DNA of 64,000 nucleotides from a bacterium BMS3Abin14 (GTDB taxonomy: Bacteria; BMS3Abin14). The position numbers and the translations under genes were made by a program. Positions within the stretch are counted from its first letter, which is position 1; each line of letters starts with the position of its first letter. The notes under the pieces were generated by a model that was not told the origin of the DNA, did not search any database, and worked only from the letters and a program-made list of their open reading frames with translations. The stretch lies in NCBI GenBank assembly GCA_002897695.1, contig BDTG01000043.1, forward strand, positions 7,934 to 71,933. The letters are read 5' to 3'. Of this stretch, positions 460 through 57,194 are shown in pieces.

Positions 460-1026
460 TCAATCCTTCCGGCTGTACCCGTAACTTCCCAAAGCGTCCC
501 CCAGCGACCTGTAGGAACGGTCCGGCGGTAAAAAGGCCAGGGGGTTGATTATCCCCATCCTGATCTTTCCATCCTCGTCGAAAGCATCCTCGGCAACATG
601 GGTCGCCACGATCTCCCCCAGAAACATGTCGTGAATCCCCAGCGGGACTATTTCGGTAAGGCTGCACTCGAGCGCGACGGAACACTCCTCGATGAGGGGA
701 GGGGACACCTTTTCGGCCGGGGCAGCGGTCAGGCCTGCTTCCTTGAATTTGTCCACGTTCTTCCCGGAGATGATGCCGCAGAGGTCAACCTTTCTGATAA
801 TCTCCACAGGGGGGATATTGACCACAAACTGGCCTGTCTCCTTGATGATGCCGTGGGAGTAGCGGCTGGGCCTGATGCTTATGCTCACCATGGGAGGGTC
901 GGAACAGATGATGCCTGCCCAGGCGATGGTGATGATGTTGGGTCGCCCCCCCTTGTCCTGACAGGTAACCAGGACGACTGGAGCCGGGCACAGGAATGTT
1001 GAGGGTTTAACTGATCGTTTCTTCAT
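460..1026 (-). CDS. Flavin reductase-like (FMN-binding) domain protein
   Basis: 188 aa; VVLVT…GRPN…TIAW motif pattern typical of the flavin reductase-like domain family. Confidence 0.7.
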   Translation of the reverse strand: MKKRSVKPSTFLCPAPVVLVTCQDKGGRPNIITIAWAGIICSDPPMVSISIRPSRYSHGIIKETGQFVVNIPPVEIIRKVDLCGIISGKNVDKFKEAGLTAAPAEKVSPPLIEECSVALECSLTEIVPLGIHDMFLGEIVATHVAEDAFDEDGKIRMGIINPLAFLPPDRSYRSLGDALGSYGYSRKD

Positions 1027-1046
1027 CTTATCCTCGTTTCAGAATA

Positions 1047-1262
1047 GTCCAGAGTCCAGTGTCCAGAGTCGCAGATTCAAGTCCGAAACGCATAAAAAGA
1101 GGTGACATTGGGTTAAGTCTTGATAGTTTGAGTTTTAGCGGAAACCAAGCTAAGGAGACCACCCAATGTCACACGGTTATATTAGCATTGAGGAGCGTGA
1201 AATCATAGCGTTTATGTCCCCGTGCCTGTCTTTCCCCTCTGGACACTGGACTCTGGACTGGT
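1047..1262. repeat. 23-bp perfect inverted repeat built of (GTCCAGA) heptamers, bracketing a 166-bp segment with a nested 12-bp stem
   Basis: 1047-1069 agtccagagtccagtgtccagag equals the reverse complement of 1237-1259. Inner stem ggtgacattgggt (1101-1113) pairs with acccaatgtcac (1161-1172). Confidence 0.7.
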
Positions 1263-1278
1263 TTCCATACCTCGACAC

Positions 1279-2010
1279 TCACAGTATCTGTGCAAGGAAC
1301 AGCTTTGTACGTTCGTTCCGGGGATTGTTGAATATGTCCTGAGGCGTTCCAACCTCTACGATTTTTCCCTCGTCCATGAATATAGTCCTGTCGGCCACCT
1401 CTTTCGCGAAACCCATCTCATGGGTGACGCAAACCATGGTCATCCCCTCGCGTGCCAGCGTTTTCATGACATCCAGAACCTCACCGATCATCTCCGGATC
1501 CAGAGCCGAGGTTGGTTCGTCAAAGAGCATGATCTTTGGCTGCATGGCAAGCGCCCTGGCTATAGCCACCCGCTGCTGCTGACCGCCCGACAGCTGCCCC
1601 GGGTGGACAGGAGCTTTCTCGGGGATCCCCACCTTTTCCAGCAGCTTCATGGCGATCTCCTCGGCCGCCCTGGTGGATCGCCCCCGGACCTTTGTCTGGG
1701 CGATGGTTACGTTGCCCAATACAGTCATATGGGGAAAGAGGTTGAAGCTTTGGAAAACCATACCCACTTCCGCCCGGACCTTGTTTATATTGGTTTCGAG
1801 ATCGGTGAGCGAGATTCCGTCGATAACGACCTCCCCTTTGTCAACAGTCTCCAGATGGTTCAGGCAGCGCAGGAGTGTGCTTTTCCCTGAGCCGGAGGGA
1901 CCCATGATGACCACCACCTCGCCCCTGTCGACGTGCATGGAGACATCGGTCAGGGCGTCGACCTGATGAGTGGTGTAGAAGGTCTTGGAGATGTCCCGTA
2001 CATCAATCAT
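1279..2010 (-). CDS. Polar amino-acid ABC transporter ATP-binding protein (GlnQ/HisP family)
   Basis: Walker [10 protein letters not shown], signature [15 protein letters not shown], Walker [13 protein letters not shown]. Confidence 0.9.
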
Positions 2011-6994: not shown

Positions 6995-7266
6995 GAGAAA
7001 GTTCAAGGCCCGGAGTCCAGGGTCCAACGGTTACTACAGATCCTTTCGTTTTACAGGGCCGAAAAAATCCATTCATGGTTTTTTTCTTCACCACAACCCC
7101 ACGCGGTGCCGGGTAATTAACAAAAAGTCCAATTATATCGAAAGGTTACGGCTTAACATCCAGCCTGTTTTTCTTGACACCCCATCGGTCGCGTGTTAAC
7201 TCTTAATCGAGATATGGGCAATGGGCAATAAAAGCAAGTTTGGCGTTCGAATTTCAAGGTTGTTTC

Positions 7267-7296
7267 CACTCTGGACTCTGGACTCTGGACTCTCCC
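7267..7296 (-). repeat. (GTCCAGA)3 tandem heptamer repeat, antisense orientation
   Basis: ccactctggactctggactctggactctcc on + strand; followed by a 9-bp GC stem-loop at 7292-7330. Confidence 0.7.
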
Positions 7297-16161: not shown

Positions 16162-16194
16162 AGTCCAGAGTCCAGAGTCCAGAGGGAGAAAGAG
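16162..16194 (+). repeat. (GTCCAGA)3 tandem heptamer repeat immediately downstream of the spoT stop
   Basis: agtccagagtccagagtccagagggagaaagag, 8 nt after the stop codon. Confidence 0.75.
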
Positions 16195-27770: not shown

Positions 27771-29807
27771 GTGGAATCTGAATTGTCTGTCGAAAAATTG
27801 CGAAACATAGGGGTGATTGCCCACATAGATGCGGGCAAGACCACCACGACGGAGCGAATCCTTTTTTATACCGGCAAGATACACCGTATGGGTGAGGTTG
27901 ATAATGGGACTGCCCAGATGGATTGGATGCCGCAGGAGCAGGAGCGTGGTATAACCATTACCTCTGCCGCGACAACCTGCCGATGGCGGGATTTTTTCAT
28001 CAATATCATCGACACACCCGGCCATGTTGATTTTACTGCCGAAGTTGAGAGGTCTCTCCGCGTCCTTGACGGCGCCGTGGTAATTTTTTGTGCGGTTGCA
28101 GGTGTTCAGCCGCAATCCGAAAAGGTCTGGAGACAGGCTGATAAATACCATGTTCCACGTATAGTATTTGTTAATAAATTGGACCGTATAGGGGCGAATC
28201 ATGATAAAACACTTGAAGACATGAAATCCATCCTCGACGCTGCGCCCCTTCCGTTGCAGATGCCCGTCGGTGAAGAATCCCTCTTCTCCGGCGTGGTGGA
28301 TCTTCTTTCCATGGAACTCATTACCTGGGGCGAGGGAACTGCGGACCCCATTAAATCCCCGGTGCCCGAGGAGCTGAAGGAAGAAGCTTCCCTGTGGAGA
28401 GATTCCCTTCTGGAACTTCTTTCCGAGTCCGATGAGAGGGTGATGGAACTTTTTCTGGATGGAGAGGATGTGCCCGCCGAACTGGTGATGGAGGCGGTTC
28501 GCAGCGGGACCCTCAGGAGGGAATTCTACCCCGTCCTGTTCGGATCTTCCCTGAGGAACAAGGGTATTCAGCCGCTGCTCGACGCCATCGTTGATTATCT
28601 TCCGTCCCCTCGGGACCTTCCGGCCGTGTCGGGAAGCTGGAAGGGCGAGAAAATTTTCCGGGCGCCTGACCCCGACGAACCGTTCAGCGCCCTTATGTTC
28701 AAGATCATGACCTATTCGGGAAGACCCAACCTCCACTACGTCAGGGTATATTCCGGGAGCCGCCGGTTCGGTGAAAAGATGTTCAATGCCAGATCCGGTA
28801 AGGTGGAGAGAGCCCTGAAAATTCTCCGAATGCACGCTAACCGCAGGGAGGAGATACGACGAATGGATGCTGGAGACATCGTTGCGTTGGTTGGGCTCAA
28901 AGACGTCCGTTCAGGGGACACGCTGTGCGATGAACAGGCTCCCATCGTCCTTGAGGAACTCTCCTTTCCGGAGCCGGTCATATTTATCGCCATTGAGCCG
29001 AAAAGCGCCAAAGACCAGGAGAGGATGATGGAGGTCCTGGCCTTGCTGGCCAGGGAGGACCCCAGTTTCGTGGTCAAGGTGGATGAGGAAACAGGCCAGG
29101 TCATACTCAGCGGCATGGGCGAGCTTCACCTTGAGGTGCTTGTCGACAGGCTTTTTCGGGATTTCAAGGTCGAAGGGCGGGTGGGCAGGCCCCAGGTGTC
29201 GTATCGCGAGACCATCACCGGGCAGGTCACGGCTCAGGAGAGGTTCGCCAGGGAAATAGCGGGAAAAGAACATGAGGTGTCCTTAACTCTCATGCTTGAA
29301 CCGCTGCCGCATGGTGGGAAAGTCCATTACGTAGATGTCTGCCCGGACGATAGTATCCCGGTCTCTTTCAAGGATATTGTCGCTCAGAGCATCAGCGATG
29401 CGGCGTCCAGCGGAGCCCTGGCCGGATATCCGGTGATTGACATCCAGGCAACCTTGCTGGATTGTGCCTACAACCCCGAGCGTTCCACCGACATTGCCTT
29501 CCGCGCCGCCGCCGTCAACGCCTTCAACAGGTGTTTAAGAGAGGGCGCCCCGGTACTTCTGGAGCCGGTCATGTCGGTGGAGGTTGAAACGCCGGAAGAA
29601 TTTACGGGTGATGTAATGGGAAGCCTCAATGCCAGGCGTGCGGTGATCCAGGGAACGGACAGGCATTGTAATGTGGAGGTTGTAAGGGCAAAGGTGCCCC
29701 TCAAGGAGATGTTCGGATACACTACATCCCTGAGGTCGGTCACCCAGGGGAGGGGTGTGTTTTCCATGGAATTGTCGCACTATGATCCGGTGGAGAAGGA
29801 ATCGTGA
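27771..29807 (+). CDS. Elongation factor G paralog (EF-G2-like translational GTPase)
   Basis: G domain AHIDAGKTT…DTPGHVDF…NKLD and EF-G domains II-V; 678 aa, shorter than canonical FusA; not in a str operon context. Confidence 0.85.
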
Positions 29808-30616
29808 CGTTCGTCGTGTTCACAGATCTGGACGGCACACTCCTTGACCATCGCACCTACGGTTTCAGAATGGCCCTGCCTGCTCTTGACATGCTCCTCA
29901 GGAGAAATGTCCCTGTTGTGCCGGTCACCAGCAAGACCTCAGACGAGGTGCGTTGGTGGATGGGTATCCTCGGGCTCAAAGGACCCTTTGCCTACGAAAA
30001 TGGCAGCGGAATCATCATCCCCGAAGGCTACTTCCCCGGAAAAATCAAGGGGGCTTCCGGTCAGAAGGGCGGGCTGAGGATTTCCACCGGCAGGGAGATC
30101 GGTGATGTGCGAAATGCCTTGAGGAATATTGCCGTTGAGCTTGGGTTGTCCATCCGGGCCTACGGTGACATGTCAAGCGACGAAATTACGGCGGCTACGG
30201 GCCTGCAGGGTAAGGAGTTGGAGAACAGCAAAAGGCGTGAATTCGACGAGCCATTCCTCGTAAATGGGGACTATGACCACGACGATTTCGTTAATGCCGC
30301 AGCGGCCAGGGGGATGACAGCTGTCCGCGGCGGTCGTTTTCACCATCTGCTCGGTGATTGTGACAAGGGTAAGGCTGTGCGTTTTCTGATGGATCTCTTC
30401 CGCAGGAAAGACGGAAATGTCATTTCCATTGGAATAGGTGACAGTGAAAATGACATGGGCCTTTTTCAATCTGTGGACCGGCCTTTTCTGGTTCAGCGTC
30501 CGGATGGGACCTACTCCTCCGGAATTCCGGAGGATGAGGCCGAGAGGGTCGCCGGCCCCGGTCCTGCGGGATGGCGGATGGCCGTAGAAGGGTTTGTCTC
30601 AAATGCAATCAATTGA
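29804..30616 (+). CDS. HAD-IIB hydrolase, mannosyl-3-phosphoglycerate phosphatase (MPGP/YedP) family
   Basis: DxD motif FTDLDGTLL; HAD-IIB C-terminal GDSENDM; GTG start overlaps the EF-G stop (GTGA). Confidence 0.7.
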
Positions 30617-31277
30617 GTCCCTGCTGGGGTATAGCTTCCGGGACAAAAGGCTTCTGACCCAGGCCTTAACCCACTCCTCGGCCGTATCCGAGGGCAGGTC
30701 CGATGGCCCGGACTATCAGCGGTTGGAGTTCCTTGGTGACGCGGTCCTTCAGCTTGTCGTCTCCCAGGTTCTCATGTCTCGTTACCCACAGCGGAGTGAG
30801 GGGGACCTCAGCTTCATCAGGTCGGAAATTGTCAGGAAAGAGACCGTGGCCGACAGGGGTGAAAAGATAGGGATACTCGATCACGTAATAACGGGGGCAA
30901 GCCTCGCATCCGCCGAAAATGCAGCTTTCCGGACACTGGCGGCCGAGACCGTGGAAGCCCTCCTCGGGGCAGTTTTTCTGGACGGTGGTTGGGATGCCGC
31001 CAGGGGTGTGACCATTCTGGTCCTGGGGGACCTGCCGAATCCGGGGGATGGCCTGAAAGGGGCTAAATCCCATCTGCAGGAGATTATCCAGAGCCGTTTC
31101 GATGGAGATGTCCCCACCTACACGGTTGAGGAGGTAAACCGCGGAGTCCCGGAGAACAGGTTTCGGGCCGCGGTTTTCCATGCGAAAAGGCTTCTCGGCA
31201 CGGGTTTAGGGAGGAGCAAGAAGAGGGCTGAGGAATCGGCGGCCGAAAAGGCCCTCAGAAAGTTGAAAAAGCCATGA
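30594..31277 (+). CDS. rnc: Ribonuclease III
   Basis: RNase III signature ERLEFLGDAVL; C-terminal dsRBD. Confidence 0.9.
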   Translation: MSQMQSIESLLGYSFRDKRLLTQALTHSSAVSEGRSDGPDYQRLEFLGDAVLQLVVSQVLMSRYPQRSEGDLSFIRSEIVRKETVADRGEKIGILDHVITGASLASAENAAFRTLAAETVEALLGAVFLDGGWDAARGVTILVLGDLPNPGDGLKGAKSHLQEIIQSRFDGDVPTYTVEEVNRGVPENRFRAAVFHAKRLLGTGLGRSKKRAEESAAEKALRKLKKP

Positions 31278-31329
31278 GATGCCGTTGTCGGGAGCGCAAG
31301 CGCTGCAGCAGTTTTCCGCCGGGTTTTTC

Positions 31330-32223
31330 ATGGTAGCCGCATATAAGTCGGGTTTTGTCGGTATCCTGGGCAGGCCGAATGTCGGGAAGTCTACCCTCCT
31401 CAACACCCTTTGCGGGGAGAAACTCGCCATCATATCGGCCAAGCCGCAGACAACCCGGAATCGCATCCTCGGGGTCCTGCACGGCTCCGGTTTCCAGGTC
31501 GTTTTTCTTGACACACCCGGGATGCATGAGTTCGGAAAAGCGCTGAACCGGTACATGCGCAGGGTTATCGAAGGTGTGGTAAAGGACGTGGACACCGTGA
31601 TTTACATGGTGGATGCGACCCGTGAACAGGGCCGGGAGGATGCACTCGCGTTGGACCTGATCCCCGCAGGGACGGACAAACCGGTCATTCTGGTGGTCAA
31701 CAAGATGGATCAGGCGGGGGAGAGAAAGACCGGAGAACGCGTCAAATTGCTGGAGGATGCCTATCCGTTCAGCGGCATTTTCCCCGTGAGCGCCCTGAAG
31801 GGCACAGGCGTAAACCACCTGCGAGAGCAAATCATTGAGGACCTGCCGGAGGGGGTCCCGTATTTTCCGGAGGATATGGTTACCGACCAGCCCCTGGACT
31901 TCAGGTTGGCGGAGATCATCAGGGAAAAACTGTTTGACCTGACCGGGCAGGAAGTTCCCTACGCCACGGCTGTTGTTGTAGAGGAGCTGTCACCCCGGGA
32001 CGACGGTCTGCTCGAGGTTTCCGGTATGATCTTCGTCGAGAGGGAGACACAGAAGGGCATTATTATCGGCAAGGGCGGAAGGATGATCAAGGATGTAGGC
32101 CAGGCCGCTCGCCTTGACATGGAAGAATGGCTGGGCCGAAAAATATACCTGGCCCTGCGGGTCAAGGTCAAGAAGAGATGGACCGACAGGGAAGGGCTTC
32201 TAAGACATCTTGGTTACAGATAA
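31330..32223 (+). CDS. era: GTPase Era
   Basis: G1 GRPNVGKST, G3 DTPG, G4 NKMD, C-terminal KH domain; rnc-era-recO synteny. ATG 31330 preferred over 31279. Confidence 0.9.
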   Translation: MVAAYKSGFVGILGRPNVGKSTLLNTLCGEKLAIISAKPQTTRNRILGVLHGSGFQVVFLDTPGMHEFGKALNRYMRRVIEGVVKDVDTVIYMVDATREQGREDALALDLIPAGTDKPVILVVNKMDQAGERKTGERVKLLEDAYPFSGIFPVSALKGTGVNHLREQIIEDLPEGVPYFPEDMVTDQPLDFRLAEIIREKLFDLTGQEVPYATAVVVEELSPRDDGLLEVSGMIFVERETQKGIIIGKGGRMIKDVGQAARLDMEEWLGRKIYLALRVKVKKRWTDREGLLRHLGYR

Positions 32224-32259
32224 ATTATCGGCGGAAAACCGCCCGGGAGAGGGTGAAAG

Positions 32260-33612
32260 ATGTATATCAGCAAGATCGATACCCTGATTGACAGCATCAG
32301 AAAACTCGTCAGGCGTGGAGCCAACCAGAACGTGAAGAAGATCATCGAGAAGATGCACGCCGCCGACGTGGCCTATATTTTCAGATACCTTAACGATAAC
32401 GAACAGTCGGTGATCTTCGGCCTTATTGACGATCCCGAGACCTCATCCGAGCTCCTCAGCCAGCTGGATACGCCCGCGAGTGCCAATATCCTCACACGTA
32501 TCGGGGCTCAAGGGGCTGCTGTCCTTCTCAAAACAATGGATCCTGACGATGAGGTGAGCGTTCTCGAGGAAGTGAACGAGGATGTCCGTGAAGAAATACT
32601 GAGCTTCATGTCCACCTCCCACAGCGAGAGGGTGGAGGAGCTGTTCCAATATCCTGAGGACAGCGCCGGGCGAATCATGAATACGAATCAGTTCGTGCTC
32701 TTTGAGGACGTGACTGTGTCTGATGCCATCGGAGATCTTCAGCGAAAGGGCGCCGACTCGACCGAGATGGTCTTTTATCTTTACGTGATCGATAAACGCA
32801 ATCATCTTGTGGGGGTTTCCTCCCTGAGGCAATTGCTCCTTGTCCCTCCGGAAACCGCAATCAAGAGTGTGATGACGCAGGATGTGGTCAGTGTGAAGCC
32901 GGAGACCGACCAGGAGGAGGTTGCGAGAGTTGTTGAGCGGTACGATCTGCTGGCTGTCCCGGTGGTTGACCATGAGAACAAGCTCCTGGGGATCGTTACG
33001 GTCGACGATGTCATCGATGTTATCCGGGAGGAGGCCACCGAGGATATCCTGAAGATGGCGGGCACGGGTGATGAGTACCTGTCCAGGTCCATTTTCCGGC
33101 GTGCAAGAATGAGGTTCCCATGGCTACTGGCGGCTTTCGTAGGCGAGGGTATCGGTATCCAGTTCATGCACTTTTTCCACGGGACCCTTGAACAGATTAT
33201 CGCTCTGGCCAACTTCCTCCCCATTATCCTGGCCATGGGGGGCAATATCGGCAGTACTTCCGTCACCATCGTTGTTCGCGGGCTTGCCACCGGCCGTCTG
33301 AATGTTAAAGAATTGGGAAAGGTTATTCTGAAGGAGTTGGGGGTTGCGCTGATTCTCGGTGGGATTTACGGAGTCCTGCTCCTGGCCCTTGTTTATATCC
33401 AGTTTGGCGATATCAGCTATCTCGGTTTTGTGGTTGGATCCAGCCTTCTGATCTCCATGCTCATGGCCGCTGCCGTCGGTACCCTGATGCCGATCATCCT
33501 GCACCTGTCCGGGGTTGATCCGGCGGTAGCCACCGGTCCTTTCGTCACCAGCACCATAGACAGTCTCGGAATTCTCGTTTATCTGGGAATGGCAACTCTG
33601 GTGCTGATATAG
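32260..33612 (+). CDS. mgtE: Magnesium transporter MgtE
   Basis: N domain, two CBS domains, five C-terminal TM helices. Confidence 0.9.
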   Translation: MYISKIDTLIDSIRKLVRRGANQNVKKIIEKMHAADVAYIFRYLNDNEQSVIFGLIDDPETSSELLSQLDTPASANILTRIGAQGAAVLLKTMDPDDEVSVLEEVNEDVREEILSFMSTSHSERVEELFQYPEDSAGRIMNTNQFVLFEDVTVSDAIGDLQRKGADSTEMVFYLYVIDKRNHLVGVSSLRQLLLVPPETAIKSVMTQDVVSVKPETDQEEVARVVERYDLLAVPVVDHENKLLGIVTVDDVIDVIREEATEDILKMAGTGDEYLSRSIFRRARMRFPWLLAAFVGEGIGIQFMHFFHGTLEQIIALANFLPIILAMGGNIGSTSVTIVVRGLATGRLNVKELGKVILKELGVALILGGIYGVLLLALVYIQFGDISYLGFVVGSSLLISMLMAAAVGTLMPIILHLSGVDPAVATGPFVTSTIDSLGILVYLGMATLVLI

Positions 33613-33621
33613 GGTAACTGA

Positions 33622-34374
33622 ATGGGCAATATCCACCAGACAGATGCCATAGTGCTATCGCGGACCAAGGTCGGAGAGGAGGATAGCATCCTCACCTTTC
33701 TCACCAGGGATTTCGGACTGTTGAGGGCGGCTGCCGGTGGCGCAAGGAGCCTGAAAAGAGGGCAGACCGGGCGTCTGGACCTTTTCGTCCTCAGCAACAT
33801 CCGGTTTTACGTTTCGGATAAACCGGAAAAACTGTGCCGAATCCGTGCGATTGATGTTGTGGAACCCTACCTGGGGATCAGGGAGGATTTTAAGCGGCTT
33901 TGTGTGGCTTCCGCCATGGCCGAACTGGCTGCACACTGTGTCCAGGAGGGCGACCCTGTTCCCGCCGTTTTTGAACTCCTGTCAGCCTGTCTGGGCCTGC
34001 TTGGCGACGGAGTGGCCCCTATGCGTGTGCTCCTCATCTTCGAGATGAGGTTTCTGAAGGAACTTGGACTGGCCCCTGAACTGTCCAGATGCCTGATCTG
34101 TGGAAAAGAGATTACGGGAAAGTCATTCATCAGCCCCCCAAAGGGCGGACTTCTTCACCCGGAATGCTCGTCTGGAGGAGAAGATGAGGAACTCACATCG
34201 GGGGATCTGGCAACCCTCCGCTTTATCGCCGGTAAATCAATGAGTTCCATCGGCAGGTTGTCCATAACGGATGGTTCGGCGGGTAGAATATGTGCGGAAC
34301 TGAACCGTTTTTCGGCACACCATCTCGGGTTTGAGGCGAAAGCGCTCAGGGTCTTACTGCAGAACGTGCCATAA
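33622..34374 (+). CDS. recO: DNA repair protein RecO
   Basis: N-terminal OB fold, zinc-binding CxxC…C region (CLICGKE…HPEC). Confidence 0.85.
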   Translation: MGNIHQTDAIVLSRTKVGEEDSILTFLTRDFGLLRAAAGGARSLKRGQTGRLDLFVLSNIRFYVSDKPEKLCRIRAIDVVEPYLGIREDFKRLCVASAMAELAAHCVQEGDPVPAVFELLSACLGLLGDGVAPMRVLLIFEMRFLKELGLAPELSRCLICGKEITGKSFISPPKGGLLHPECSSGGEDEELTSGDLATLRFIAGKSMSSIGRLSITDGSAGRICAELNRFSAHHLGFEAKALRVLLQNVP

Positions 34375-34521
34375 AACAGTGCATCTCCTTACCCTTCCTC
34401 TCCCTGGAAAACTTGACATCATGGGGCATTAGCGGTTAATTGTCCCACTTGGCAGAAAGAGCTGTAGACTATTTTTACGACCATATCACACATATCACAG
34501 TTGTTTTGAGAGGAATGGGCA

Positions 34522-35433
34522 ATGACGGAGAAAAAATCGTACCAGCAGGTTGTCCTTGACCTTGAGCGGTTCTGGGCCGAAAAAGGCTGCGTTATTCAGC
34601 AGCCCTACGACCTGGAGGTGGGCGCGGGAACCCTTAATCCCGCCACGCTGCTGAGGGTCCTGGGCCCCGAACCATGGAACGTGGCATACGTTGAGCCCTC
34701 CAGGCGTCCAACGGACGGGCGGTACGGGGAAAATCCCAACCGGCTTCAGCATTACTATCAATATCAGGTTATCCTTAAACCATCACCCGACAACATCCAG
34801 GACCTCTATTTAGAGAGCCTTTATGCCCTCGGTATTGATCCCAACCGGCATGATATCCGGTTTGTTGAGGATGACTGGGAGAATCCGACGGTGGGGGCCT
34901 GGGGGCTCGGATGGGAAGTCTGGCTGGATGGGATGGAGATTACCCAGTTTACGTACTTTCAGCAGGCGGGAGGCATCGACCTGAAACCTGTGTGTTCTGA
35001 GCTCACCTACGGGCTTGAACGAATTACAATGTATCTGCAGGGTGTGGACAATGTGTACAATCTGATCTGGACAGACGGTGTGACTTACGGGGACGTCCAT
35101 CACCAGGGGGAGGTGGAGAACTCCACCTACAACTTCGAAACAGCGGACACGGCCATGCTCTTTAATCTGTTTGACATGTACGAGGCCGAATCCCGGAGAA
35201 CCCTCGAAAGGGGTTTGGTCCTGCCCGCCTACGACTACTGTTTGAAGTGTTCCCACACGTTCAACCTGCTGGATGCGCGAGGAGCCATCAGCGTAACTGA
35301 GAGGACAGGTTTTATTCACCGGGTGAGAAATCTCTGCCGGGCCGCCGCCGAGGCCTACGTCGCCCAGCGGGAGGCGATGGGATACCCCCTCATGGGGAAG
35401 AACCTTCTGCCGGAGCAAAAGGGACTGGAGTGA
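34522..35433 (+). CDS. glyQ: Glycine--tRNA ligase alpha subunit
   Basis: 303 aa, highly conserved GlyQ sequence (FQQ…[10 protein letters not shown]…). Confidence 0.95.
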
Positions 35434-35463
35434 CTTCATGTCCAACGTCCAGCGGGGTAGAAC

Positions 35464-35493
35464 AGTCCAGAGTCCAGAGAGAAGAAAGGCGGA
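35464..35493 (+). repeat. (GTCCAGA)2 heptamer repeat in the glyQ-glyS spacer
   Basis: cagtccagagtccagagagaag; a degenerate copy gtccaacgtccagcgg lies at 35439-35454. Confidence 0.65.
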
Positions 35494-35587
35494 CGCGGGG
35501 GACGAAAGGGTGTGGCAGGAGTGGACTCCAGACCCCAAGATCCAGGACCCTGAATGATCGAACTCGAAAACTGTGAGGATTTAATAG

Positions 35588-39120: not shown

Positions 39121-39585
39121 ATGAGGTACGTGAGGGGATTTCTGCTTTTTGTGCCGGTGCTGCTTCTCCTGACCGCCTGCTCCGGGTTATCCACAAGAGA
39201 GTCGGTACCGCTCCGCCACCCGGAGGAGCTTGAGCAGGGCAGGGTCAACTGTCTCGAATGTCACGAAGACGAAACGTCCGGAGCCCTTAAACCCTACGGC
39301 TCTTTCCCGCACACGGCGGTTTTTCTCAAGGAACACGGATCTTACGCCTCTCAGACCCAGAACCTCTGTTCCACCTGTCACTCACCCTCCTGGTGTCAGA
39401 CGTGTCATGCCGTCCGTGAGGAACTCAAGCCTGGAATCAAGTACGGCAATCGTCCTGATCTGGGCCTGCCCCATCGGGGAGATTTCATAATACAGCACCA
39501 GAAGGAAGGGAGGATCGACCCGGGATCGTGTCTGACTTGTCACGGCAACCGGAACAACCGGGTATGCGGCAGGTGCCATCATTGA
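39121..39585 (+). CDS. Pentahaem c-type cytochrome lipoprotein
   Basis: Lipobox LLTAC; five CxxCH motifs (CLECH, CSTCH, CQTCH, CLTCH, CGRCH) in 154 aa. Confidence 0.8.
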   Translation: MRYVRGFLLFVPVLLLLTACSGLSTRESVPLRHPEELEQGRVNCLECHEDETSGALKPYGSFPHTAVFLKEHGSYASQTQNLCSTCHSPSWCQTCHAVREELKPGIKYGNRPDLGLPHRGDFIIQHQKEGRIDPGSCLTCHGNRNNRVCGRCHH

Positions 39586-39609
39586 TGACTTCGTGAAAAG
39601 TCATCAATG
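39580..39609 (+). repeat. 12-bp-stem hairpin CATTGATGACTT…AAGTCATCAATG (family-2 related) overlapping the cytochrome stop codon
   Basis: Seen directly; related AAAAGTCATCAAT core also at 10014-10043. Confidence 0.6.
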
Positions 39610-39771
39610 CGCCCACTTGGGGGCCTCAAATCGAAGATTTGTGAGGAGAGCGGAAATGACACTTTTCGCTTTCCGTGGAGTAAAAGGTAACGGATGCACT
39701 TTTTACGACTCTAATAATATATACAGAGCCCGCGAACCAGGGAAACTGTCTGTGATATTCCGGAGGTTGAG

Positions 39772-45673: not shown

Positions 45674-45716
45674 AAAGTCCAGAGTCGAAAGTCCAGAGTC
45701 CAGAGGGGAAAAGCGG
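45674..45716 (+). repeat. (GTCCAGA) heptamer repeat cluster directly after the stop of EBP1
   Basis: gaaagtccagagtcgaaagtccagagtccagaggggaaaagcggg. Confidence 0.75.
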
Positions 45717-45992
45717 GCAATGCGCTGTAGGCTCTGGGCTATGGGTAAAGAGGTCCAGAAAACAATGTCCAATGACCAGCGATGTCATTGCGAGGAGCAT
45801 CGAGGGAAACGAGAGTGACGGTTTACCACGTCGAAGCCACAGGAGCGAAGACGGGCGGCAATCCAGAAGGCGGAACCTTTATAACATATTGACAACATGA
45901 CTGCCTAAAAGTTATTACAAAATTGAAACATCTCATGGAATTGTGTGCAGAAATCTGTTCTGCCGGGGGGCGAGGGGAGTCGGAAGTTGGCA

Positions 45993-47347: not shown

Positions 47348-47380
47348 AAAGTCCAGAACTGTTCTTCCCCTCTGGACTCT
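47348..47380 (+). repeat. GTCCAGA-derived hairpin directly after the stop of EBP2
   Basis: aaagtccagaactgttcttcccctctggactct forms an 8-bp stem AGTCCAGA/TCTGGACT. Confidence 0.7.
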
Positions 47381-57081: not shown

Positions 57082-57169
57082 ATCCAGAGTCCAAGGCCTT
57101 CCGCGGTGTAGCCCGAAGGACGAAGACGGGTCCAGAGTCCAAAGAATAGGGGGGCCGAATTTCGGCCCC
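57082..57169 (+). repeat. Two TCCAGAGTCCAA units separated by a GC stem, followed by a perfect hairpin GGGGCCGAA-TTTCGGCCCC
   Basis: Seen directly in the livK-livH spacer, beginning 10 nt after the stop codon. Confidence 0.7.
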
Positions 57170-57194
57170 CTCGTATGTCCAAGGGACGCAGAAC

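Follow-up and report, generated by a model that had tools for sequence, protein, structure and literature searches.

The spacer separating a glnQ-like gene, encoding the ATPase of an ABC transporter, from a flavin reductase gene in the bacterium BMS3Abin14 carries an arm-core-arm element which is one copy of a dispersed, lineage-specific family of heptamer repeats anchored to stop codons. This well-supported conclusion was drawn from a 64,000-nt stretch of contig BDTG01000043.1 (assembly GCA_002897695.1), referred to below as the window, and from loci collected from other genomes (designated by L numbers). BMS3Abin14 has given its name to a GTDB candidate phylum consisting of 12 genomes of 1.5–2.9 Mb (PMC11382960). 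The element belongs to a known but poorly understood class of heptamer repeats, familiar from filamentous cyanobacteria and Geobacter and here present in an uncultured candidate phylum; as regards its role, we tentatively favor that of a stem comparable to the repetitive extragenic palindromic (REP) sequences of other bacteria.

A heptamer repeat family anchored to stop codons

A repeat finder detected two arms of 23 nt, 1046-1068 (AGTCCAGAGTCCAGTGTCCAGAG) and 1237-1259 (CTCTGGACACTGGACTCTGGACT), which are 100% complementary and separated by 168 nt. This perfect inverted repeat had been recognized in the first-pass annotation, although the left arm was placed one nucleotide off, at 1047-1069, and the length of the enclosed sequence, given there as 166 bp, has to be corrected. 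Each arm contains about 3.3 copies of a period-7 unit (Tandem Repeats Finder, TRF), AGTCCAG, and the variant unit TGTCCAG of the left arm has an exact mirror in the right arm. The nested inverted repeat described in the core, between 1101-1113 and 1161-1172, holds as a stem of 12 nt, 1102-1113 (GTGACATTGGGT) with 1161-1172 (ACCCAATGTCAC), 47 nt apart, whereas the extra G at 1101 is unpaired. The two neighboring genes were also those announced, and since the spacer lies between two minus-strand genes, from stop codon to ATG, the element is intercistronic. Along the mRNA, the stop codon is followed by 19 nt, the AGUCCAG array, the 168-nt core, the complementary array, a further 19 nt that include GAGGA, and the AUG, the features being as follows (L006 is the locus of the nearest relative).

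1279-2010, minus strand: glnQ-like ABC ATPase gene (stop codon at 1279-1281)
1260-1278, minus strand: 5' flank, 19 nt from stop codon to arm, GTGTCGAGGTATGGAAACC, 17 of the 19 positions being the same in L006
1237-1259, minus strand: 5' arm, units AGTCCAG, AGTCCAG and TGTCCAG followed by AG, starting 19 nt past the stop codon
1069-1236, minus strand: variable core, 168 nt, unique, holding all three single-nucleotide polymorphisms (SNPs) between strains
1102-1172, minus strand: nested hairpin in the core, 12-bp perfect stem with a GGTCT/AGACT extension in the minimum-energy fold, not kept in L006
1046-1068, minus strand: 3' arm, CTCTGGACACTGGACTCTGGACT in mRNA sense, the perfect complement of the 5' arm, ending 19 nt before the flavin reductase ATG (1026)
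1027-1045, minus strand: 3' flank, 19 nt, ATTCTGAAACGAGGATAAG, carrying the flavin reductase Shine-Dalgarno sequence GAGGA outside the stem
460-1026, minus strand: flavin reductase gene

When folded on both strands, as the first-pass annotation had proposed, the 252-nt spacer proved to be more stable than its shuffled versions (mRNA strand, z = -6.4; opposite strand, z = -8.0), and none of the 200 shuffles folded as well. The same spacer was found in five independent metagenome assemblies, between which three SNPs occur, all in the core and none in the arms, numbers that are too small for significance (estimated P about 0.3). The array copy number is the same in all five assemblies, which argues that the arrays are not hypermutable.

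The first-pass idea of a dispersed heptamer family, of which the arms are members, was borne out across the window. The sequence GTCCAGNGTCCAG, with at most one mismatch, occurs 13 times in the 64 kb, where 0.33 occurrences are expected, and this count was reached in 0 of 100 shuffles. TRF gave tandem repeats with a period of 7 and 3.3–4.3 copies. Seven AGTCCAG arrays were identified; all of them are intergenic and lie between co-directional genes confirmed by Pfam, including the evident operons glyQ-glyS and livK-livH.

Site A, glnQ to flavin reductase, 1046-1259, minus strand: array with the perfect inverted partner described above
Site B, argC to response regulator gene, 7010-7294, plus strand: degenerate 5' arm GGAGTCCAGGGTCCA, 19 nt past the stop; partner (ACTCTGG)x3.7 at 7268-7293, 17 nt, 88% complementary, 245 nt apart
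Site C, relA/spoT to ridA, 16162-16184, plus strand: (AGTCCAG)x3.3, 8 nt past the stop; small hairpin with CTCTCTAGAC
Site D, glyQ to glyS, 35440-35533, plus strand: degenerate units from 6 nt past the stop, then (AGTCCAG)x2.3 at 35464-35479; partial partner at 35522-35533, 12 nt, 83%
Site E, sigma-54 activator gene to sigma-54 activator gene, 45676-45744, plus strand: array 4 nt past the stop; degenerate partner at 45725-45744, 13-16 nt, 75-85%
Site F, sigma-54 activator gene to UDP-glucose dehydrogenase gene, 47350-47378, plus strand: mini hairpin AGTCCAGA / TCTGGACT, 8 nt, 100%, with a 13-nt loop, 4 nt past the stop
Site G, livK-like binding protein gene to livH permease gene, 57082-57142, plus strand: ATCCAGAGTCCAA, 9 nt past the stop, and GTCCAGAGTCCAA at 57130, direct copies; then a separate GC hairpin at 57150-57170

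The placement of these arrays is strict. In spacers measuring 51–358 nt, the first unit follows the upstream stop codon at 19, 19, 8, 6, 4, 4, and 9 nt at sites A to G, respectively; the probability of seven of seven falling within 20 nt of the stop under uniform placement is about 1e-6 by our own arithmetic. The coding strand reads AGTCCAG (AGUCCAG in the mRNA) at all seven sites, and a downstream inverted partner, often degenerate, is present at five of them (A, B, D, E, and F). The arrays are trailed by a purine-rich tail, and the fact that the motif ACGCGGGGG/GCGGACGCGGGGAC is common to the arrays of site A (in L006), site D, and CP070719.1 suggests that the repeated unit consists of the array plus about 30 nt. 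AGTCCAG was also detected in the relatives L006, L214, and CP070719.1. In the last of these, a complete metagenome-assembled genome, an arm-core-arm AGTCCAG pair occurs (L083, 3714-4060) after the stop codon of an unannotated open reading frame (ORF) ending in KEAYLGE, its core being partly masked as N.

A 58-aa ORF (1166-1342, plus strand) preceded by a good Shine-Dalgarno sequence, AAGGAG, was called as a gene in four assemblies; it crosses the right arm and reaches into the 3' end of glnQ, which is encoded on the other strand. It resembles an IS30-type N-terminus, but since the ORF has no Pfam match and no counterpart was called in L006, it is probably spurious.

Arms, cores, and turnover in related genomes

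The arms and the core have had different fates since the window lineage and L006 diverged. At the nucleotide level, glnQ is 86.6% and the flavin reductase gene 87.8% identical between the two, and the 5' flank plus arm and the 3' arm plus flank reach 95.2 and 90.5%, respectively, as against 57.7% in the core, a value obtained by forced alignment of sequences that are otherwise unalignable. That the 168-nt core is fast-evolving filler is well supported.

The first-pass annotation had proposed that the element is mobile and resembles a miniature inverted-repeat transposable element (MITE). On this reading, the 23-nt arms would be terminal inverted repeats, and the 216-bp unit would have been inserted by a transposase acting in trans. 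The perfect terminal inverted repeats and the short non-coding interior fit this proposal, and the lineage does harbor genuine MITE-like elements, one of which lies in the window at 39570-39716. The arms outlive the core, however, which is the reverse of what is predicted for copies of a MITE. In addition, BLAST searches of the window and of 1.24 Mb of collected loci returned only the core itself, although these cover about 75 kb of the source genome and a low-copy family is possible; the flanks (CAGAAT before the element and GGTTTC after it) share no direct repeat suggestive of a target-site duplication; and no empty site was found among the roughly 12 orthologous spacers (L006, L007, L008, L131-L136, L215-L217, and L219-L220), all of which are occupied. 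L006 even combines the same arms with a different core. We therefore consider it highly improbable that the element is a MITE. Descent of the core from the MITE-like family (39570-39716, with members in L006 and L131), as a diverged copy, was also considered and rejected: 1063-1083 bears a weak resemblance to a terminal repeat of this family, but the local match extends over only 48 columns and the multiple alignment is unconvincing.

The synteny of glnQ and the flavin reductase gene is widely kept among more distant relatives, the spacers of which have the following contents.

L008 and L133: (AGTACCM)x4 facing (GTACTGR)x4
L131 and L132: (ATTCAAN)x4 facing (TTGAATN)x3-4, the loop measuring only about 30 nt
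L136 and L219/L220: purine-rich arm of the GGAAGRA type facing a pyrimidine arm
L215-L217: degenerate heptamers in direct orientation (RAGNNCT), without a significant fold (z = -0.8)
L007: no heptamers, non-significant GC stem (z = -0.5)

In one set of orthologous spacers, the fold z-scores range from -3.0 to -7.0 in six of the nine members, and the score is -3.3 in L219/L220. An RNAduplex matrix gave a mean of -41.9 kcal/mol for 5' arms paired with the 3' arm of their own lineage, vs. -20.1 kcal/mol with those of other lineages. The architecture is therefore conserved while the heptamer sequence is replaced, with the exception of some lineages. Another conserved site with arrays is present in L131 (4334-4364), L133 (4372-4398), and L136 (4337-4364), where (ATTCAAG)x4 occurs just upstream of a YgjP-like gene; these three loci share ATTCAAG at this site although three different heptamers are used in their glnQ spacers. 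In L131 and L133, an array of the poly-(GGGGGAG) type lies at the opposite end of the spacer on the YgjP side. The L135 spacer opens with a 20-bp perfect palindrome, GTCCCGCCTGTGGCGGGAT...ATCCCGCCACAGGCGGGAC (30-88), where the related L136 has a different palindrome.

The gain of an array can be followed at site D. The glyQ-glyS spacer (35434-35587) measures 154 nt in the window and 200 nt in L214, but in the relatives L211-L213, the GlyQ proteins of which are 86–89% identical, glyQ and glyS overlap as ATGA and the whole spacer is missing, which suggests that DNA bearing the array colonized a new site in the window lineage. The heptamer family, as array plus short tail, thus appears to colonize new sites. 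Between the window and L214 (about 85% identical in nucleotides), the spacer is 94.8% identical, vs. 90.3% for glyQ, 87.1% for glyS, 84.7% for recO, and 76% for a neighboring spacer, and its unique parts are likewise more conserved than the genes. The additional length in L214 is due to a 46-nt insertion within the array, consisting of a 29-nt palindrome (TCCRCC-N3-GCTC-N3-GAGC-N3-GGYGGA) flanked by duplicated heptamers: two AGTCCAG units stand on each side of it, vs. two in all in the window. Compensatory R/Y changes distinguish the copies of this palindrome, which were found in three places and not inside the window.

L214, 10953-10981: within the glyQ-glyS array
L006, 5758-5786: in the L006 version of the core
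L001, 12787-12815: in a further spacer of the source genome, close to the window but not within it

The copy present in the L006 core indicates that the variable cores are built at least partly by small insertions. The palindrome is reminiscent of the very small mobile elements, called SDR (small dispersed repeats), that Elhai and colleagues are said to have reported in Nostoc in 2008.

The MITE-like elements mentioned above form a separate, dispersed family with several hairpins, about 150–170 nt in length, with the terminal repeats AGAGTCGCAAAAAGTCCATTCG / CGAATGGACTTTTTACGACTCT and without any match in Rfam. The copies are as follows.

Window: 39570-39716
L006: 1436-1612, directly past the rplM stop codon, where the window spacer measures only 36 nt
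L131: 1003-1165, 5585-5700, and 5849-5960
L214: 1292-1395 and 2309-2435, both sites being empty in the window (true presence/absence between species)

These copies are 85–92% identical between species with far more diverged genes.

This turnover raises the question as to whether the arrays are simply selfish or neutral repeat DNA, growing by replication slippage and by insertions into arrays, with inverted copies perfected by template switching and a hairpin that is a by-product having no role in expression; the position past stop codons would then be the sole place tolerated in compact operons. The colonization of the glyQ-glyS spacer, the palindrome inserted along with duplicated heptamers in L214, insertions of the MITE-like family past stop codons, seen in L006 and L214 and not in the window, and the presence of many different heptamers within the genome of a single relative are all in keeping with this explanation, as is the lack of an RNA-strand signal in the wobble counts given below. 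According to Mrazek (2007), as quoted in PMC4679880, tandem heptanucleotides are the most abundant long simple sequence repeats in many prokaryotes, and are ascribed to slippage. It is more difficult to explain on these lines why the arms, beside a decayed core, are much better conserved than the coding DNA that flanks them, why the unique parts of the glyQ-glyS spacer have changed less than the genes, why orientation and anchoring are so strict, and why the copy number is constant in five assemblies. We regard a selfish or neutral origin as unlikely on balance, but as an explanation to be reckoned with.

Possible roles of the paired arrays

The reading which we favor, tentatively, is that of a REP-like intercistronic stem in a polycistronic mRNA, serving as a decay barrier or as an RNase III site. 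The glnQ-like and flavin reductase genes would be read into one transcript, in which the arms would close a perfect helix of 23 bp and bring the transporter stop codon within about 40 nt of the next ribosome-binding site. This helix might act as a barrier to 3'-to-5' decay, as the stem-loops of REP sequences and bacterial interspersed mosaic elements (BIMEs) do in enterobacterial operons; two helical turns of perfect duplex might also be a substrate for RNase III. Either way, the upstream operon and the downstream gene would no longer be coupled in their mRNA levels. A role in the transcript is suggested by where the arrays lie relative to stop codons, their sense orientation, their location in clear operons, the conservation of the arms, and the fact that the loops of about 30 nt in L131 and L132 leave no room for a promoter between the arms, which would place the hairpin inside a read-through transcript. 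Array G follows a periplasmic binding-protein gene, which we take to be the classical position of a REP; classical REPs occur between malE and malF and between hisJ and hisQ. The window includes an RNase III gene (30594-31277), which forms part of an rnc - era - mgtE - recO - glyQ cluster (27771-35433) about 30 kb from the element.

The first-pass annotation had also considered a structured small RNA, a terminator, or a 5' untranslated region (UTR). That the arms bracket nearly the whole spacer and that their complementarity co-varies make a structured RNA or UTR a better fit than a MITE, but the canonical forms of such signals are lacking. The element might have been the intrinsic terminator of the transporter operon, or its core might have encoded a small RNA or riboswitch: the stem starts soon past a stop codon, the core has its own 12-bp hairpin, and six consecutive T come after the 3' arm of L133. 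However, a scan of 900-1400 on either strand yielded no sigma-70-like promoter and no U-tract terminator, the loop measuring 168 nt, and no U-tract follows the 3' arm in the window. At the gathering score, Rfam recognizes only a tRNA in the window, and nothing in 950-1350 even at E <= 10. The core has not been conserved between the window and its closest relative, and the 58-aa ORF, which lacks both a Pfam match and an L006 counterpart, does not support this explanation either. A conventional RNA signal thus seems very improbable.

Several points weigh against the REP-like stem. In a wobble test on 10 hairpins, we counted 195 Watson-Crick pairs, 10 sense G.U pairs, 17 antisense G.U pairs, and 11 other mismatches; these counts give no sign of selection for pairing in the sense RNA, and the structure could matter in the DNA or not at all. 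At this very spacer, no significant hairpin was found in two lineages (L007 and L215-L217). Period-7 arrays of many units are dense in the relatives (about eight of the 18 spacers in the 20-kb L008 locus), which makes their recurrence at one spacer less surprising, and an inverted partner is missing for about half of all the arrays. A loop of 168 nt is unusually large for an exonuclease barrier, and perfect arms with a mirrored variant could have arisen by template switching (quasipalindrome correction). Lastly, co-transcription, folding in vivo, and any effect on the mRNA are assumptions in this uncultured organism; what has been observed is the sequence, the family membership, the rule of placement, and the conservation and co-variation of the arms. 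Because of the wobble counts and the two lineages without a hairpin, this reading has a serious rival in a selfish or neutral origin, whether or not the repeats were later co-opted.

Another possibility is that the heptamers act at the DNA level, as iterated sites for a nucleoid-associated or regulatory protein, the inverted pair forming a looped or symmetric operator. One heptamer dominates in the window, L006, L214, and CP070719.1, as would be the case if it were maintained by a sequence-specific trans factor, and a target in double-stranded DNA would fit the lack of wobble asymmetry; binding arrays have been proposed for Geobacter metallireducens (PMC2700814) and for Nostoc recF/recO (bioRxiv 10.1101/2022.06.06.494920). 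Stop-codon anchoring and sense orientation are hard to explain in the case of a double-stranded site, however, and arm complementarity that co-varies is not required of tandem binding sites. Many heptamers are used within one genome among the relatives, and no candidate binding protein has been identified. Binding arrays strike us as quite improbable.

Relation to other heptamer repeats and hairpin families

The nearest counterparts of the element, as far as its units are concerned, are the short tandemly repeated repetitive (STRR) sequences, heptamers that Mazel and colleagues reportedly described in 1990 in heterocyst-forming cyanobacteria. STRR arrays can form long helices, and extend helix P12 of the RNase P RNA, for example. 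The AGTCCAG family resembles them in its tandem 7-nt units, its dispersal over many intergenic sites, and its lineage-specific unit. The host differs, since BMS3Abin14 belongs to an unrelated candidate phylum and is not a heterocyst-forming cyanobacterium as in the original definition; and we know of no description of STRRs in which the arrays keep to the sense strand and to a distance of 4–19 nt past the stop codon. The class being a descriptive one, we have filed the element as STRR-like. Two further likenesses are that (AGTCCAG)>=3 itself is present, among the matches listed, in genomes of Scytonema, Nostochopsis, and Plectonema, and that ATTCAAA (L131 and L132) is a rotation of the TTCAAAA listed for Nostoc 7120 (bioRxiv 10.1101/2022.06.06.494920). 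In Nostoc, the expression of a reporter is affected by heptamer repeats lying upstream of recF and recO (same preprint).

Scanning a genome collection for exact (AGTCCAG)3, the single heptamer scanned, so that no enrichment can be inferred, showed arrays of at least three units at more than 120 loci in very diverse phyla, including many Planctomycetota, Verrucomicrobiota, and Acidobacteriota. Among the matches listed, several loci per genome occur in Vicinamibacterales ant_bin.512, Pyrinomonadaceae TH_ant_mag_244, and CP070719.1, with arrays of up to 18 units, and a strict inverted partner within 600 nt accompanies only eight of the 120 loci, which indicates that pairing is not universal for AGTCCAG arrays. 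Long-ORF heuristics placed 90 of 122 arrays from the loci in other phyla inside an ORF, a figure which is uninformative because of spurious ORFs in high-GC DNA.

Heptamers in pairs have been described in G. metallireducens, where tandem heptanucleotides, about five to an array, form the paired "class 3" sites (consensus MTYCTGA), as in the proB-proA spacer; only eight such pairs were reported, another repeat occupies that spacer in the sister species, and the authors proposed to read them as binding sites of the IHF/HU (integration host factor/HU) type (PMC2700814). The paired arrays drawn as a fold-back, the intercistronic position, and the presence of another repeat in the sister species recall our findings, but the repeat unit is not that of BMS3Abin14. 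In marine Beggiatoaceae, TAACTGA repeats lie directly upstream of start codons, overlapping the ribosome-binding site, with 169 direct sets and one indirect (PMC4679880). These are likewise intergenic tandem heptamers present in many operons, with a strong rule of position and orientation, a scattered phylogeny, and a proposed post-transcriptional role; in contrast, the BMS3Abin14 arrays follow stop codons and commonly pair, whereas TAACTGA is almost never inverted.

Like the REP, BIME, and REPIN (REP doublets forming hairpins) families (PMC3116915), the elements studied here are extragenic, lineage-specific, hairpin-forming inverted doublets (seven sites, five of them partnered), which are placed past stop codons in operons, as array G is past a binding-protein gene, and have spread to new sites. 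They differ in that their arms consist of tandem AGTCCAG rather than an imperfect palindrome of 20–35 nt, and that there is no GTAG head. No gene for a RAYT (REP-associated tyrosine transposase, an IS200/IS605-like Y1 transposase) turned up among the selected window proteins that were scanned, no genome-wide search having been made. The comparison with REPs would therefore be one of resemblance in the mode of action, not of membership. With MITEs, the likeness is limited to terminal inverted repeats around a short non-coding core; the lack of a target duplication, the unrepeated core, the absence of presence/absence variation at the site, and arms that outlast the core are all differences. In genome annotation, long perfect inverted repeats composed of heptamer arrays are thus not to be called MITEs, and it should be borne in mind that gene callers put spurious small ORFs in them.

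Tandem heptamers have been noted for decades in cyanobacteria, Geobacter, and Beggiatoaceae without any function being accepted. The locus described here provides a clean comparative series in a candidate phylum with small genomes: one spacer, one architecture, and at least four heptamers. The conserved arms beside a decayed core, along with the strict sense placement past stop codons, speak against regarding the arrays as mere noise from slippage. A more speculative idea, to which we give little credence, is that the heptamer arrays here, and by extension the STRRs of cyanobacteria, are actively written and renewed in a sequence-specific manner instead of arising by passive slippage. The candidates are the repeated insertion and excision of tiny palindromic elements duplicating a multiple of 7 bp of their target, or else an RNA- or DNA-binding protein that reads the heptamer. 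If this were true, the arms of the hairpin would be rewritten in a new seven-letter "alphabet" as the lineages diverge (AGTCCAG, AGTACCM, ATTCAAN), and there would be a mechanistic handle on a class of repeats that has been unexplained since 1990.

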